Part shown: positions 1-4,418 of the stretch, piece by piece
How the letters are laid out: every line of letters begins with the position of its first letter
Position numbering within the stretch: position 1 is the first letter of the stretch
From: a virus
Taxonomy: Duplodnaviria; Heunggongvirae; Uroviricota; Caudoviricetes
IMG/VR virus record: IMGVR_UViG_3300010279_000132
Coordinates: 1-4,418 of that record
Length of the DNA stretch: 4,418 nucleotides
Reading direction: 5' to 3' (one strand)
Translations under genes and position numbers: made by a program
Notes under the pieces: model-generated
What the model was told of the DNA's origin: nothing
The model's database searches: none
The model's input: only the letters and a program-made list of their open reading frames with translations

Positions 1-341
1 GTCAGCCAGTCAGCGCCAGTCATGCGCTTTTCTGCATCGCCATTAGTCCACTTAACCGGTACACCAATAGCCTTCATCGCGATTTCTATTTCCCCGGCAA
101 TGGCGCTTTTTCCGCAACCAGTAAAACCAGAAACAACGACAAGAACTTCGCCTTTGGCTGGTTTTATTTCCCGTGCTTCCAGTTCTGCAATACGCTTTTT
201 GTCTGCTTCCCGTTCATCCAGTAGTGCCAGCACAATCGATGGTGTTACCAGCTCATGGAAAAGGTCCGCGTCAAATCCCCAGTCGTCATGCATTGCCTGA
301 TCTGCCGCTTCACGCAGTGCCTGGTAATTAATTTCGCTCAC
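1..341 (-). CDS. P-loop NTPase, N-terminal 113 codons only; gene continues beyond the window start
   Basis: Minus-strand frame opens with GTG at 341-339, preceded by AGGAGG (348-353) with a 6-nt spacer, and stays open to position 1. Translation VSEINYQALREAADQAMHDDWGFDADLFHELVTPSIVLALLDEREADKKRIAELEAREIKPAKGEVLVVVSGFTGCGKSAIAGEIEIAMKAIGVPVKWTNGDAEKRMTGADWL. A hydrophobic strand (LVVV) followed by GFTGCGKS fits the Walker A pattern GxxxxGK[ST]. Absent from the ORF track, presumably because it is truncated by the window edge. Family not identified. Confidence 0.55.
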   Translation of the reverse strand, partial: MSEINYQALREAADQAMHDDWGFDADLFHELVTPSIVLALLDEREADKKRIAELEAREIKPAKGEVLVVVSGFTGCGKSAIAGEIEIAMKAIGVPVKWTNGDAEKRMTGADWL

Positions 342-582
342 TGGTTGCCTCCTGTTTTTCTGCCTTCAACACCATGCGAGAACCATCATCCAGCTCCCAC
401 GCGATCTCACCACCTTCAGCCATGACCAGTCGCCACACCAATTGAGCAGCCTCATTGGTAACATCACGACCTGGATCATTGCCAACGCGCATACGTCCAC
501 CTTCAACATCGCGCATTTTTGCCAGCATGATAGTTTTTGATAGCGGTGAAAAACCAAGCTGTAGTCGTGCTGAATTACTCAC
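328..582 (-). CDS. hypothetical protein, 84 aa, GTG start
   Basis: ORF-track frame 328..582. GTG start at 582-580 overlaps the TGA stop of the upstream gene (GTGA) and is preceded by AGGAGG with a 6-nt spacer. Its last 14 nt overlap the start of the next gene. No recognisable motif. Confidence 0.55.
   Translation of the reverse strand: MSNSARLQLGFSPLSKTIMLAKMRDVEGGRMRVGNDPGRDVTNEAAQLVWRLVMAEGGEIAWELDDGSRMVLKAEKQEATSERN
337..353. repeat. 17-nt direct repeat, copy 1 (translation-initiation region of the P-loop NTPase gene)
   Basis: Plus-strand CTCACTGGTTGCCTCCT at 337-353 is identical to 578-594. On the minus strand it reads AGGAGGCAACCAGTGAG, i.e. SD + spacer + GTG start + AG. Confidence 0.9.
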
Positions 583-594
583 TGGTTGCCTCCT
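578..594. repeat. 17-nt direct repeat, copy 2 (translation-initiation region of the 84-aa gene)
   Basis: Identical 17-mer CTCACTGGTTGCCTCCT, 241 nt from copy 1. Flanking bases differ on both sides. Confidence 0.9.
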
Positions 595-1052
595 TTGCGA
601 AGCTGGGCGGCGAACTCGTTAAGTGATATGTAGCAATCTCCAAATGTTAACGAACCGCTCGACTGCATATGCTCCATAGCCATCTCCACGCCCTGCGCAC
701 GTACTTCAGCCAGGAAAGCATCGGTGGCTGGGGTTTTGATTTCGTTAAGCGCATCACTGAATCCACCACGCTCCATACCTAGCTCTGCTTCGTAATCGGC
801 ATCGAATGCAGCGTCTTTGCAGAACTTCTTCATCCCCGAACTCTCCGCTGCCAGCGCCGCGCACTTGGCCTCAAGGTTATCAATCGTGATTCCAGCAGAA
901 CGACACTCCCGCAACGCAGCTTCTAGTTTTGATTCAAGTTCACCGAACTTACGGACAAGATATTCAGCGTTTGTTTCGTTAACCTTTAAATCTCGTGGGA
1001 TGCATTTACCTTTCAGAAATCCATCCATCTCAATTAGTGTCATTTGTTTCAT
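579..1052 (-). CDS. hypothetical protein, 157 aa
   Basis: ORF-track frame 579..1052 ([16 protein letters not shown]...). ATG at 1052-1050 overlaps the TGA stop of the upstream small gene (ATGA). Protein-like composition, no stops, no recognised domain. Confidence 0.7.
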
Positions 1053-1213
1053 TTTTTCCCACTCTGCAACATCGCATTCAGATATTTGTTTTGATTTACT
1101 GACGGAAAAGAATTTCTCTTAAGCAATTCCTCTCTCGATGGCATTGGCTTTACGCGTTGGCGAATAATCATTTCTGCCGGAAGAATGCCGGGATTGTATG
1201 CAAGTCCTCTCAT
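1049..1213 (-). CDS. small hypothetical protein, 54 aa
   Basis: ATG at 1213-1211 preceded by TGAGGA with a 7-nt spacer, directly after the stop of the 98-aa gene. Translation [54 protein letters not shown]. It is the 3' part of the 105-aa ORF-track entry 1049..1366, whose 5' part overlaps the 98-aa gene out of frame. Confidence 0.45.
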
Positions 1214-1223
1214 GATAAATTCC

Positions 1224-1520
1224 TCAGTCATTACTGATAGCGCCATAACGAGAGCGATAATTACGCAGGCGCGGGTCGATATATTCAGGGAAGTGGGTAT
1301 ATGTGGCTTTGCGGAATGGTCGGATTGATGTCTGGTAAATTCTCTCTCGTTCTTCTTTCTCTGCAAGCCATATACAGTGGCGAAATTCCTTTTCCTCTTT
1401 CGTTTCCTGCGGTAGAGACATTATCCGGTCGTAGTTTCTTCTGAATTTATCCAGCACCTCCGATACGGAATTGCCGGAACAGCGGCGCGCGTCATCCGCA
1501 CCATACAGAGGCGCTGGCAT
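1224..1520 (-). CDS. hypothetical protein, 98 aa
   Basis: ORF-track frame 1224..1520. ATG at 1520-1518 preceded by AGGAG with a 6-nt spacer, 13 nt after the ssb stop. No recognised domain. Confidence 0.6.
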
Positions 1521-1533
1521 GATTTTCTCCTGA

Positions 1534-2040
1534 TTAAATTGCGTGAATAGCGTGACGAGGGAAGGGGAGAGTTACTGGTGCAAAGGGTATATCGTCGTCA
1601 AAATCCATCGGAGGTTCGTTGTGTTGTGCTGGTGATGATTGCTGCTGTGGCTTCTGTGATTGCCTGCTGGCTGCTTGTTGTTTGCTGTCGCCAATGCCGC
1701 CAAGCATTTGCATCACGCCATTAATTCCGACATGAACCTCGGTTGTGTAACGGTCTTGCCCTGACTGGTCTTTCCACTTTCTGGTTCTCAGCATTCCCTC
1801 GAAATAAATCTGATCACCTTTTTTCACATACTGCCCAACGACCTCAGCCAGTTTCCCGGATACAGCAACACGATGCCATTCAGTCAATTCCTTTTGCTCG
1901 CCAGTATTTTTATCTCGCCATTGTTCTGACGTGGCTATTGTCAGGTTAGCGAACGCTGTTCCTGATGGTGAGTATCGAACTTCCGGGTCTTGTCCTACCC
2001 GACCAAGGATAATCACCTTATTTACGCCTCTGCTTGCCAT
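1534..2040 (-). CDS. ssb: single-stranded DNA-binding protein (SSB), phage-encoded
   Basis: 168-aa product [23 protein letters not shown]...TEWHRV...[19 protein letters not shown]...[13 protein letters not shown] closely parallels E. coli SSB as I recall it: OB-fold N-terminal domain, Gly/Gln-rich linker and acidic DDDIPF motif. ATG abuts the TAA of the upstream recombinase gene (TAAATG). The frame continues 15 codons past DDDIPF (see findings). Confidence 0.93.
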
Positions 2041-2748
2041 TTATGCCACCTGTTTTAGTTCGTTAACTCTGATGTTCACTATCTGAACGCATTTAGCCTG
2101 CTCCTCCTCGTTGCCAGCCATTAATTGCCAGTCACGCTGATAACGCTCGATGAGTTTTTTCTTGTCAGTTTCTGTTGACGCATAATCGCTGAAGTCTTTC
2201 AGGATTTGTTCGCAGTCAACCGATGGAGATTTCTGGTTGGTATCTTCTGGTGATGGTTTGTTATCTGATGCTGGGATTGCCCATCCCGGAAGCGATGGAG
2301 GGAGCCAGTAAAATCCTGTTCCATCCTTCAGTTTTGCCCTGTGCCACCCCTGCTTTTTATCGAGAGATGTTTGTGCGAAACCTTCCTCAAGGTTATACAG
2401 ATACCGACCGATTCCCCACTGAACGGCAGCGCGCTTCATTGCACCGGAACGACCACCTTTGACGGCTTCTACCTGTGTGTTTTCAGCAGCATCCCATTTG
2501 GTTACCCATTCGGAATCAATCTTTATTGATATGCCGCATTCAACGCCGCCGTTGTTGGGAATATCGCGGTATTCATTGCGCCATCCTGCTTTGCCGCAAA
2601 CATCGTCCAGGCGTTTCATGATTGCCCGGTTCGTGACATAAGCCAGCACCATAGCCCACACCTTGCCATCGCGTGTTTTACCGCTTTGCTGTATTCGCCA
2701 TTCGATATCTTCAGGGCTGAATGGCTCATCGAATTTGTTCAAATCCAT
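2041..2748 (-). CDS. Rad52/Rad22-family single-strand annealing protein (Sak-like phage recombinase)
   Basis: 235-aa product. Segments YVTNRAIMKRLDDVCGKAGWRNE and AMKRAAVQWGIGRYLYN resemble conserved blocks of the Rad52 N-terminal DNA-annealing domain as I recall them (Y..R.I..L...FG..GW and KRAL..FGN). RBS GAGGTG with a 4-nt spacer before ATG at 2748. Sits directly upstream of ssb, a typical phage recombination module. Confidence 0.8.
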   Translation of the reverse strand: MDLNKFDEPFSPEDIEWRIQQSGKTRDGKVWAMVLAYVTNRAIMKRLDDVCGKAGWRNEYRDIPNNGGVECGISIKIDSEWVTKWDAAENTQVEAVKGGRSGAMKRAAVQWGIGRYLYNLEEGFAQTSLDKKQGWHRAKLKDGTGFYWLPPSLPGWAIPASDNKPSPEDTNQKSPSVDCEQILKDFSDYASTETDKKKLIERYQRDWQLMAGNEEEQAKCVQIVNIRVNELKQVA

Positions 2749-2756
2749 AATTCACC

Positions 2757-2927
2757 TCAGAATGGACATGGCCCAAGGAAATAACGCTGGTTTAATACTT
2801 CGACTCGGGACAAATTAAGGCATACCCGCATTCCTTCGCGGTCGCCATTATGGCGATACCAGAGAGCTTTCTGCGTGTACATGCGTCTCTGTAACTTGCT
2901 CTCCTTCACTGTGGTTGCAAGTGACAT
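2757..2927 (-). CDS. small hypothetical basic protein, 56 aa (candidate)
   Basis: ATG at 2927-2925 preceded by AAGGAG with a 6-nt spacer; stop TGA at 2759-2757, 8 nt before the recombinase ATG. Translation MSLATTVKESKLQRRMYTQKALWYRHNGDREGMRVCLNLSRVEVLNQRYFLGPCPF. Overlaps the 52-aa candidate by 80 nt in another frame; too short for the ORF track. Confidence 0.4.
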   Translation of the reverse strand: MSLATTVKESKLQRRMYTQKALWYRHNGDREGMRVCLNLSRVEVLNQRYFLGPCPF

Positions 2928-3006
2928 GAATATCTCCTTCGTTATCGATTAAATCTTTCATCTGACGAATGAATTCTTCGTCTGACCAGTTATCTGTAAA
3001 ACTCAT
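2848..3006 (-). CDS. small hypothetical acidic protein, 52 aa (candidate)
   Basis: ATG at 3006-3004 overlaps the TGA stop of the kil-like gene (ATGA). Translation MSFTDNWSDEEFIRQMKDLIDNEGDIHVTCNHSEGEQVTETHVHAESSLVSP; stop TAA at 2850-2848. No properly spaced SD, so it would depend on translational coupling. Confidence 0.35.
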   Translation of the reverse strand: MSFTDNWSDEEFIRQMKDLIDNEGDIHVTCNHSEGEQVTETHVHAESSLVSP

Positions 3007-3155
3007 TTCCTGCGATACCACGGAAGGTTGATAGCTGATTTCATCGCTTTATTTGCTTCAAGCCACATTTTTGAATCACCAATAAATCTGGCTATTACTG
3101 CTTTGTTCTGTGCAGCTCGAAGCATCTTGTGATTGATGGCTATTTCATTGCGCAT
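3003..3155 (-). CDS. kil: Kil-like small protein (putative host cell-division inhibitor), 50 aa
   Basis: ATG at 3155-3153 preceded by GAGGT with a 6-nt spacer. Translation MRNEIAINHKMLRAAQNKAVIARFIGDSKMWLEANKAMKSAINLPWYRRK. Sits immediately 3' of cIII, as kil does in lambda, and is of similar size. The FIGD-containing segment matches my uncertain recollection of lambda Kil; the call rests mainly on synteny. Confidence 0.5.
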   Translation of the reverse strand: MRNEIAINHKMLRAAQNKAVIARFIGDSKMWLEANKAMKSAINLPWYRRK

Positions 3156-3271
3156 AATAAGACCTCAACTCTTTTCCATCCGTCACGTAATTTACGGGTG
3201 ATTCGTTCAAGTAAAGATTCATTTAATTGGAAGGCACCCATGCGAGCGCCTCCCGCGATTGCGTAAATCAT
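3140..3271 (-). CDS. cIII: CIII-family protein (inhibitor of host FtsH/HflB protease), 43 aa
   Basis: ATG at 3271-3269 preceded by AGGAA with a 6-nt spacer. Translation MIYAIAGGARMGAFQLNESLLERITRKLRDGWKRVEVLLCAMK. The stretch ESLLERITRKLRDGWKR matches the conserved central helix of lambda CIII as I recall it, and the N-terminus MIYAIAG parallels lambda MQYAIAG. Too short for the ORF track. Confidence 0.8.
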   Translation of the reverse strand: MIYAIAGGARMGAFQLNESLLERITRKLRDGWKRVEVLLCAMK

Positions 3272-3295
3272 GGGTGGTTCCTTATGTTGGTTTTA

Positions 3296-4264
3296 TTAGT
3301 AGGTTATTTTTGTTGCGAATACTTCGCCTTTTACGATGGCTGTTATGATATTTTTAGCAACATCTTCTGATGCGCCAACCTTGATAAGGTCAGCAAGTAT
3401 TTTGTTATTTACTTCTTTCCGGTGAGCTTTATCCTTTGCTCTACGCTCTTCTTCGTCCTTGATTCTTTTTTCTTCTGCTATTCTGGCTTGCTCTTTTGCT
3501 TCAGCCTCGCGCCGGATTCGTTCAGCCTCCTCCTGTGCTTTTCGGCGTTCTGCTTCAATTGCCGCATGCTTTTCTCTTTCAGCTCGTTCTGCTGCCTCTT
3601 TTGCTTCGCGCTGTGCTCGTTGCTCGGCTTCAATGCGTTCACGCTCTGCACGTTCCGCTGCGGCCTTAGCTTCTGCTTCTCGCCTTGCTGCTGCTTCAAT
3701 TTCGGCTTTTGCCTTTGCTTCGGCTTCTGCTCTGGCTTTCTCTTCAGCTTCTCTTTTTAAGCGTTCTTCATGCTCTCGCTTTTCCTGCTCCGCTTTGAGT
3801 CTTGCCTCTTCTCTTTGGCGGTCAAATTCGCGATCCATCAAAATCGCTATTTCATGGTCAGACTCAATTTGCTTTGCGAGAGCTTCAGCTGCTGCCTTAG
3901 CTTCTTCTTCGGCTTTAATCCGCGCCTGTTCTTCCTCATAATCAGTAAGAGGCTGGCGTGCCTTGGCTTTCAGCTCATCAAGGCGATCACGCACTGTCTT
4001 GCGGTTGGCATCAATTAGCTTTGGAATTTCCTTCAGTTCAGCAACAAGGTCTTTGCCAACACCATCGAGATATGTTTTCGTCTGCGCAACTTTATACGCC
4101 AGAGAAGCGATCTCCTTTCTGCCCTTTGCCGTTGTGATATCAGGCACAAAGGACATAACTTCACGTTCAACCTTTTGAAGGATTTCTTCAATCTGGTCGG
4201 CAGACTGAAATACAGTCATTGCATTTGCTTTTTCAATAACAACTAATTCTGTTACTTCACTCAT
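3296..4264 (-). CDS. hypothetical protein, 322 aa, with a long E/R/K/A-rich charged helical (coiled-coil or single-alpha-helix-like) central segment
   Basis: ORF-track frame 3296..4318. I place the start at the ATG at 4264-4262 (MSEVTELVVIEK...), which has GGAGG (4273-4269) 4 nt upstream; the track's upstream ATG at 4318 has no RBS and would span the terminator hairpin. N-terminal about 130 aa look globular, the middle about 140 aa are E/A/K/R-rich, and the last about 35 aa (NKILADLIKVGASEDVAKNIITAIVKGEVFATKITY) are hydrophobic/amphipathic. No transmembrane segment apparent. Confidence 0.85.
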   Translation of the reverse strand: MSEVTELVVIEKANAMTVFQSADQIEEILQKVEREVMSFVPDITTAKGRKEIASLAYKVAQTKTYLDGVGKDLVAELKEIPKLIDANRKTVRDRLDELKAKARQPLTDYEEEQARIKAEEEAKAAAEALAKQIESDHEIAILMDREFDRQREEARLKAEQEKREHEERLKREAEEKARAEAEAKAKAEIEAAARREAEAKAAAERAERERIEAEQRAQREAKEAAERAEREKHAAIEAERRKAQEEAERIRREAEAKEQARIAEEKRIKDEEERRAKDKAHRKEVNNKILADLIKVGASEDVAKNIITAIVKGEVFATKITY

Positions 4265-4276
4265 ATATCCTCCATC

Positions 4277-4303
4277 AAAAAAATTGCCCTCACATTGGAG
4301 GGC
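4277..4303 (-). terminator. candidate rho-independent terminator (tL1-like) on the minus strand
   Basis: On the minus strand: GCCCUC-CAAUGU-GAGGGC (6-bp stem with 5 G:C pairs, 6-nt loop; plus 4286-4303) followed by AA and seven U (plus 4277-4285). The RBS of the next gene begins 3 nt after the U-run. Confidence 0.55.
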
Positions 4304-4342
4304 AAAGAAGATTTCCAATAATCAGAACAAGTCGGCTCCTGT

Positions 4343-4418
4343 TTAGTTACGAGCGACATTGCTCCGTGTATTCACTCGTTGGAATGAATACACAGTGCAG
4401 TGTTTATTCTGTTGTTTA
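4343..4418 (-). other. possible 3' end of a minus-strand ORF entering from beyond the window (24 codons then TAA at 4345-4343)
   Basis: One minus frame is open from the window edge: KQQNKHCTVYSFQRVNTRSNVARN*. Too short to distinguish from chance. If real, it would be the gene preceding the terminator, the position the N gene occupies in lambda. Confidence 0.2.
4366..4393. repeat. perfect 9-bp inverted repeat with a 10-nt spacer
   Basis: GTGTATTCA (4366-4374) ... TGAATACAC (4385-4393), spacer CTCGTTGGAA. Lies upstream, in transcription sense, of the terminator and the first gene. Function unknown. Confidence 0.6.

Follow-up and report, generated by a model that had tools for sequence, protein, structure and literature searches.

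An early-left operon segment of a lambdoid phage with a Rad52-type annealase, an extended single-stranded DNA-binding protein and Abc2

The 4,418-nucleotide (nt) stretch of the IMG/VR virus record IMGVR_UViG_3300010279_000132 (positions 1 to 4,418; hereafter, the window), whose source is a metagenome assembly, is very probably the middle part of an early-left (pL) operon from a temperate lambdoid phage, or a prophage, of Escherichia coli. In the recombination slot of this operon, genes for a Rad52-type annealase, an SSB (single-stranded DNA-binding protein) and the anti-RecBCD protein Abc2 are contiguous (2748..1224); ssb and abc2 are 13 nt apart, and a nuclease gene is lacking. Every credible open reading frame (ORF) lies on the minus strand, and transcription runs from position 4418 to position 1 in the order terminator, 322-codon ORF, cIII, kil, orf52/orf56, annealase, ssb, abc2, DUF2737 gene, 157-codon ORF, DUF7446 gene and Ea22-like gene (Table 1). 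The succession of terminator, variable gene, cIII, kil, small ORFs, recombinase and accessory genes had been recognized in a first-pass annotation made from the sequence alone, and it is present as described. Neighboring genes are separated by 0-24 nt or have overlapping start and stop codons, and because of this tight packing a single transcription unit is expected. All ORFs are intact and tightly coupled, except for the left-end gene, which is cut by the window edge.

The assignment to a lambda-type operon starts from cIII and kil, whose homologs are adjacent and on the same strand, as in lambdoid pL operons. The CIII product matches PF02061 with 56 bits (cut-off 25.7) and is 69% identical to CIII of lambda and 72% identical to C3 of P22; Kil matches PF06301 with 72.9 bits (cut-off 27.6) and is 53% identical to lambda Kil. 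The first 16 nt of kil are shared with the end of cIII. Both gene calls, proposed earlier without database searches, are thus upheld by Pfam profiles as well as by pairwise alignment to lambda and P22.

The surroundings of the window were read from near-identical contigs and not from the source contig. Contig L095 (ENA ERZ27241763 k141_20921), found by an exact-protein look-up with the 322-residue product, shows two mismatches over window positions 6-4418 (4413 nt) and reaches 1074 bp beyond the window on the upstream side. It carries a lambda-type N gene (91% identical to lambda N; PF11438) about 1.2 kb upstream and on the same strand, the order being N, a gene with an Nmad5 domain and then the terminator. 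Contig L094 is 99.8% identical over window positions 1-1098 and continues downstream with an Ea22-like gene of 141 codons, a Lar-like gene, Exc/xis, a lambda-type integrase gene and then ybhC/ybhJ/ybhI/ybhH, that is, the neighborhood of att-lambda. The genes cI and cro and the operator OL are seen further upstream in relatives only (L001, Sf6 and mEpX2), as the source contig stops short of these features and of xis, int and att. Together, the CIII and Kil matches, N in one contig and xis, int and att-lambda in the other support the lambda-type early-left operon of the first-pass annotation, and the non-phage flanks that would speak against it were not found.

Alignment at the nucleotide level to lambda places the window further. 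Positions 4265-4418 are 95.5% identical to the intergenic region between ral and ea10, and positions 207-342 match the beginning of ea22 with 93% identity. The terminator hairpin sits inside the first of these blocks, and the homologous site is annotated as tL2A in the Sf6 record. The hairpin had been likened to tL1; since the homologous Sf6 site is labeled tL2A, the alignment identifies it rather as the counterpart of tL2a, with the 322-codon gene occupying the ea10 slot.

The first gene of the recombination module encodes an annealase that matches PF04098 (Rad52_Rad22) over residues 4-136 with 91.9 bits (cut-off 20.3), and the same domain is present in all 120 annealase homologs listed. This core is followed by a disordered linker (residues about 160-175) and a three-helix C-terminal domain (residues 179-234). 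A model computed with AF2 from 27 homologs had a mean pLDDT of 82, and in a Foldseek search of this model against the PDB the top 16 matches were all yeast Mgm101 or the N-terminal domain of human RAD52 (probability 0.89-1.0, E 4e-4 to 1e-2), with modest TM-scores of 0.2-0.46. A phmmer search of the annealase against PDB sequences retrieved no RAD52, the relation being visible to profile and fold methods only. The model indicates that the protein has a Rad52-type N-terminal fold, for which ring formation and annealing of single-stranded DNA are predicted.

The C-terminal part of the annealase has another affinity. Its last 79 residues (window 2044-2280, residues about 157-235) are 63% identical to residues 134-205 of P22 Erf, and the ERF core (PF04404) has no match in the window protein, while P22 Erf itself matches this profile with E = 4.6e-46. 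Judged from these alignments, the annealase is a chimera in which a Rad52_Rad22 core has been joined to the C-terminal domain of P22 Erf by a domain swap; it is because of this shared domain that PHROG 1097 and many database records name the annealase "Erf-like", which is a mislabel. Modeled alone, the C-terminal domain forms a confident three-helix bundle (pLDDT 91), which retrieved nothing significant from PDB folds (all E > 2, generic three-helix bundles only). A relation to the C-terminal domain of lambda Beta was rejected (hhalign probability 0.3%). The domain is only 20-30% identical in relatives from Yersinia, Hafnia and Pantoea, where a recognizable Abc2 is missing too. The three-helix domain common to Erf-type and Rad52-type annealases may be an adaptor to SSB or to the Abc2-RecBCD complex.

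The third member of the module, which was overlooked in the first-pass annotation, is Abc2 (1520..1224). It matches PF11043 with 201.9 bits, is 91% identical to Abc2 of P22 and aligns with the RecBCD-bound Abc2 of PDB entry 8B1T (E = 4.5e-55). Abc2 binds RecC and alters RecBCD (summarized in PMC12315714). The earlier view that exo and bet of lambda are replaced here by a Rad52-family annealase and an SSB stands, both proteins scoring above the cut-offs of PF04098 and PF00436, and so does the remark that no exonuclease is recognizable, since Pfam, PHROGs and NCBIfam identify no exonuclease domain in any ORF of the window. What needs correction is the comparison: because it includes Abc2, the module is P22/Sf6-like in its logic and not a lambda Red system with a swapped recombinase. 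In P22-type systems Abc2 takes the place of a phage exonuclease, so the absence of the latter is expected, and by analogy Abc2 is the likely reason why this phage would do without one, host RecBCD being re-programmed for resection.

The distribution of nuclease genes at this locus was surveyed in 80 IMG/VR contigs with the closest annealases. All 80 keep the order annealase, SSB, zero to two nuclease genes and abc2. The interval between ssb and abc2 is empty in 38 contigs; 24 contain a gene for an Rv2179c-like 3'-5' exonuclease there, 15 an HNH gene and three both. The corresponding gap of the window (1532-1534) is thus a hotspot of gene insertion in relatives (compare L002 4853-5413 and L003 4756-5235). 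These data bear on another explanation of the missing exonuclease, namely that a hidden nuclease among the uncharacterized products (orf52, orf56, the DUF2737, 157-residue, DUF7446 and 322-residue proteins) performs the resection and Abc2 only inhibits RecBCD, shielding the phage ends. The window has seven ORFs without known function, and the 42 of 80 relatives with an Rv2179c-like or HNH gene between ssb and abc2 demonstrate that the module tolerates nucleases, which are frequently added. However, no nuclease fold or motif was found in the window ORFs by Pfam, PHROGs, NCBIfam or PADLOC, and the other 38 relatives, as well as viable phages like HK75 (PMC12315714, Table 1), also lack a nuclease gene in the module, which makes a hidden nuclease very improbable and favors resection by the host enzyme under control of Abc2.

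Relatives at a greater distance, from Yersinia, Hafnia and Pantoea, keep the annealase-SSB pair and the family of the 322-residue protein upstream of cIII, but not an Abc2 recognizable by Pfam. One Pantoea contig (L100, 5203-5517) encodes a 104-residue protein after ssb, whose end (...WRDYTTERRGRFGAVIQE) resembles the C-terminus of Abc2; from this resemblance, it may be a diverged Abc2 missed by Pfam and BLAST.

The layout of the window is not unusual, as it equals that of Sf6 genes 25-33 and of the HK75-type recombination module. In Sf6 (AF547987; annotation of Casjens et al. 2004) the same order is formed by tL2A, gp33, cIII (gp32), kil (gp31), gp30/gp29, the annealase gp28, the SSB gp27 and Abc2 (gp25), and the identity is 94.8-98.7% over window positions 1066-1216, 1210-1579 and 1695-4418. 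Sf6 differs by the HNH gene gp26 between ssb and abc2, by an SSB ending in DIPF, by an extra gene 24 and by other ea genes to the left; in the window, the body of the HNH gene is gone and its last 14 codons are fused to ssb. A functional classification of the recombination modules of 325 lambdoid phages (PMC12315714, Genome Res 2025) defines an HK75 type that consists of an anti-RecBCD protein, an SSB and an annealase without a nuclease and comprises 27 of 314 Enterobacterales phages (Table 1 in that paper). The window has Abc2, an SSB and a Rad52-type annealase and lacks a nuclease, and so belongs to this type; HK75 itself is 96% identical over 59% of the window length and has the identical fused SSB tail, while the flanking slots (the gene in the ea10 slot and the ea genes) differ.

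The P22 module (arf-erf-abc1-abc2) also occupies the region between kil and the ea genes, with identities of 91% for Abc2, 75% for the DUF2737 protein (P22 orf56) and 63% for the C-terminal domain of Erf. It differs in the annealase core, which is ERF in P22 and Rad52_Rad22 here, and in the abc1 slot, which in the window holds the SSB gene. Lambda Red shares with the window the operon and the position after cIII and kil, along with the combination of RecA-independent strand-annealing recombination and control of RecBCD, and lambda N, the terminator between ral and ea10 and the start of ea22 have counterparts of 91-95% identity in the window or the near-identical contig. Lambda differs in that Gam blocks RecBCD, whereas Abc2 modifies it, and in having no phage SSB; BLASTP and Pfam identified no homologs of lambda Exo, Beta or Gam among the window ORFs.

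Colinear matches of 95-98% identity were found in the viable phages Sf6, N7, IME10, HK75, mEpX2 and Huey, and of 5426 complete E. coli genomes, 2911 contain prophages that match the window. The share of the window covered by any one record of the phage or complete E. coli genome collections does not exceed 85%. Hence the exact permutation of modules is new, which is usual for lambdoid phages, and each module is already known. The region is textbook lambdoid mosaicism and means little as a discovery, its module having been annotated in 2004 (Sf6) and classified in 2025 (HK75 type). Its practical value is in annotation, given the mislabeling of the annealase as "Erf-like" and of the 322-residue protein as "TolA".

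The SSB of the window deserves separate consideration. It matches PF00436 with 125 bits (cut-off 26) and aligns with enterobacterial chains in the PDB (7f2n, E = 2e-59; 1eqq, E = 6.6e-58), most positions of the OB domain being identical to 7f2n. The OB domain is followed by a short linker, a DFDDDIPF tip and an extension of 15 residues (154-168; encoded by 1581..1537, minus strand), so that the DDDIPF tip, whose motif lies at residues 145-153, is not at the extreme C-terminus but 15 residues before it. The last 14 residues of the extension, as well as the DNA encoding them, recur unchanged at the end of the HNH ORF gp26 of Sf6, the SSB of which ends in DIPF. The extension was present in all 62 HNH-less loci among the 80 IMG/VR relatives and in none of the 18 loci bearing an HNH gene. 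According to this sequence comparison, the extension is a remnant of the neighboring HNH gene.

Such an origin could mean that the module is partly decayed, the tailed SSB being a deletion scar without normal partner interactions and the window belonging to a defective prophage rather than to a working phage. The perfect split between HNH-less and HNH-bearing loci indeed resembles a deletion-fusion junction, and the SSB relatives from Hafnia, Pantoea and Yersinia have the canonical DDDIPF end. Moreover, SSB partners hold the tip by its free terminal carboxyl, RecO through R132 and DnaG through R452 (PMC3152348, PMC5872125), and therefore the extension should alter partner interactions. On the other hand, the fused SSB is found in the viable, plaque-forming phages HK75, mEp235, mEpX2, epsilon34, g341c and ECP1, and the intact, tightly coupled ORFs of the window do not look decayed. 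The 45 nt of the extension show two substitutions only, both synonymous, over four diverged lineages, and the extension is present on two different types of SSB linker. Decay is for these reasons improbable, and we prefer to regard the module as that of a working phage. The full-length junction of the fused SSB also occurs in 297 of 5426 complete E. coli genomes (about 5%).

A further possibility, which we put forward tentatively and consider rather unlikely, is that the extension burying DDDIPF is under selection and not a neutral scar, and that the C-terminal domain shared by the annealases is likewise a device for partner selection. If so, an SSB with a masked tip would lack the free carboxylate bound by its host partners (ExoI, RecO, DnaG, RecQ and others), would coat single-stranded DNA without recruiting host nucleases or helicases and would reserve this DNA for the phage annealase. 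The masked tip and the shared C-terminal domain are testable leads on the matching of phage annealases with their partners, a matter of interest when recombineering tools are chosen.

Gene identities, order, packing, phage flanks and family memberships are read from the window and its relatives; the biochemical steps are taken by analogy from the homologs in lambda and P22 and are proposed to run as follows. With the lambda-type N protein conferring resistance to termination, leftward transcription from pL would pass the tL2a-like terminator. CIII would inhibit FtsH and thereby protect CII, and Kil, once made, would block cell division. Abc2 would bind the RecC subunit and re-program RecBCD, so that the host enzyme would supply end resection; the phage SSB would coat the exposed single strand, and the annealase, forming rings with its Rad52 fold, would pair complementary strands, by which phage DNA would be circularized, repaired and recombined. 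The downstream ea-type genes would be accessory cargo.

Several points weigh against this account. The phage flanks are those of near-identical contigs. The tip of the SSB is not C-terminal, and this could impair binding of the canonical partners. According to PMC12315714, SSBs of the Sf6/ES18 type are without experimental study. The transfer of single-stranded DNA from Abc2-modified RecBCD to a Rad52-type annealase would be an extrapolation from the genetics of P22 Erf and lambda Beta. Finally, no homolog of abc1 or arf, the auxiliary genes of P22, is detectable in the window.

The two small ORFs between kil and the annealase gene overlap each other. The start of orf52 overlaps the kil stop (ATGA). 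For 80 nt, orf52 shares its sequence with orf56, which is read in a different frame and is preceded by a strong Shine-Dalgarno motif (AAGGAGatattcATG). The single-nucleotide polymorphisms of orf56 fall on codon positions 1/2/3 with counts of 9/6/17 outside the overlap and 4/2/7 inside it, that is, with a third-position bias in both parts; in the frame of orf52, the counts inside the overlap are 7/4/2, mostly on codon positions 1 and 2. Among the 44 ungapped relatives, which represent 31 distinct sequences, none has a disrupted orf56 frame. PGAP annotates orf52 only, and PHROGs calls both orf52 and orf56 "recombinase" without evident basis. The position of orf52 is that of arf in P22. Its identification as Arf was dropped, as the match is restricted to seven residues (SDEEFI, E = 0.76) and Arf of P22 is a member of another PHROG (2445); neither orf56 nor orf52 is detectably related to P22 Arf.

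In the 322-residue protein, a long helix rich in E, R, K and A joins an N-terminal domain of about 115 residues to a C-terminal one of about 45. It had no match in Pfam, NCBIfam, PADLOC or PDB sequences, and a search for homologs of its N-terminal domain retrieved only unannotated or "TolA"-named fragments. The labels "TolA" and "colicin import" are artefacts of the charged low-complexity helix. Homologs that are 37-47% identical are encoded just upstream of cIII in prophages of Yersinia, Hafnia and Pantoea. The first-pass annotation had described a mosaic region in which the slots flanking the conserved core are typically variable. The 322-codon gene is not a random cargo gene, its family being kept upstream of cIII across genera.

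Table 1. Features of the 4,418-nt window in the order of transcription
Feature	Coordinates	Strand	Evidence or remark
Intrinsic terminator hairpin	4284..4305	-	8-bp stem, 5 GC pairs, then T7
322-aa protein (Sf6 gp33 / PHROG 1376)	3296..4264	-	lambda ea10 slot
CIII, 43 aa, FtsH-inhibitory lysogeny factor	3140..3271	-	PF02061 E = 4e-15
Kil, 50 aa, cell-division inhibitor	3003..3155	-	PF06301 E = 1.4e-20; PHROG 2055
orf52 (Sf6 gp30 / HK97 gp42.1; PHROG 2123)	2848..3006	-	
orf56 (Sf6 gp29 / HK97 gp42; PHROG 1723)	2757..2927	-	
Single-strand annealing protein, 235 aa	2041..2748	-	PF04098 Rad52_Rad22 E = 5e-26
SSB, 168 aa	1534..2040	-	PF00436 E = 1.6e-36
Abc2, 98 aa, anti-RecBCD	1224..1520	-	PF11043 E = 1.4e-60
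DUF2737 protein, 54 aa, P22 orf56 homolog	1049..1213	-	PF10930 E = 2e-31; 75% identity to P22 orf56
157-aa ea-region protein (PHROG 614), partly EaE-like	579..1052	-	47% identity to P22 EaE over 62 aa
DUF7446 protein, 84 aa	328..582	-	PF24233 E = 1.3e-18
Ead/Ea22-like gene, 5' part, 113/141 codons, cut by window end	1..341	-	PF13935 E = 4.8e-13
aa, amino acids.

Searches for other elements were negative. Rfam had no match in the whole window at E <= 1, a promoter scan returned fewer sites than shuffled sequence did, for which reason no internal promoter is claimed, and the absence of Chi sites is uninformative, as 0.12 sites are expected by chance. An exact 38-mer of the DUF7446 gene had no match in the genome contigs searched. 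PADLOC identified no defense-system match for the 322-residue, 157-residue, DUF7446, Ea22-like and Nmad5 proteins or for the small ORFs.

The Nmad5 gene (nucleotide modification associated domain 5, PF18757, E = 7e-70), located at 432-1055 of contig L095, occupies the region that in lambda holds sieB and ral, between N and the terminator. Several E. coli prophages at att-lambda (L089-L093) also have this gene upstream of their recombination module. At the window's other end, a protein identical to the product of the 157-codon ORF is encoded in many E. coli prophages at the same attachment site. The Ea22-like gene (1-341, minus strand) starts with a segment whose product is 82% identical to residues 1-51 of lambda Ea22 and is followed by a Walker-A-like GCGKS motif, with weak matches to kinase-type P-loop families (E about 0.006-0.02); the full-length protein, seen in relative L094 (758-1183), has 141 residues.

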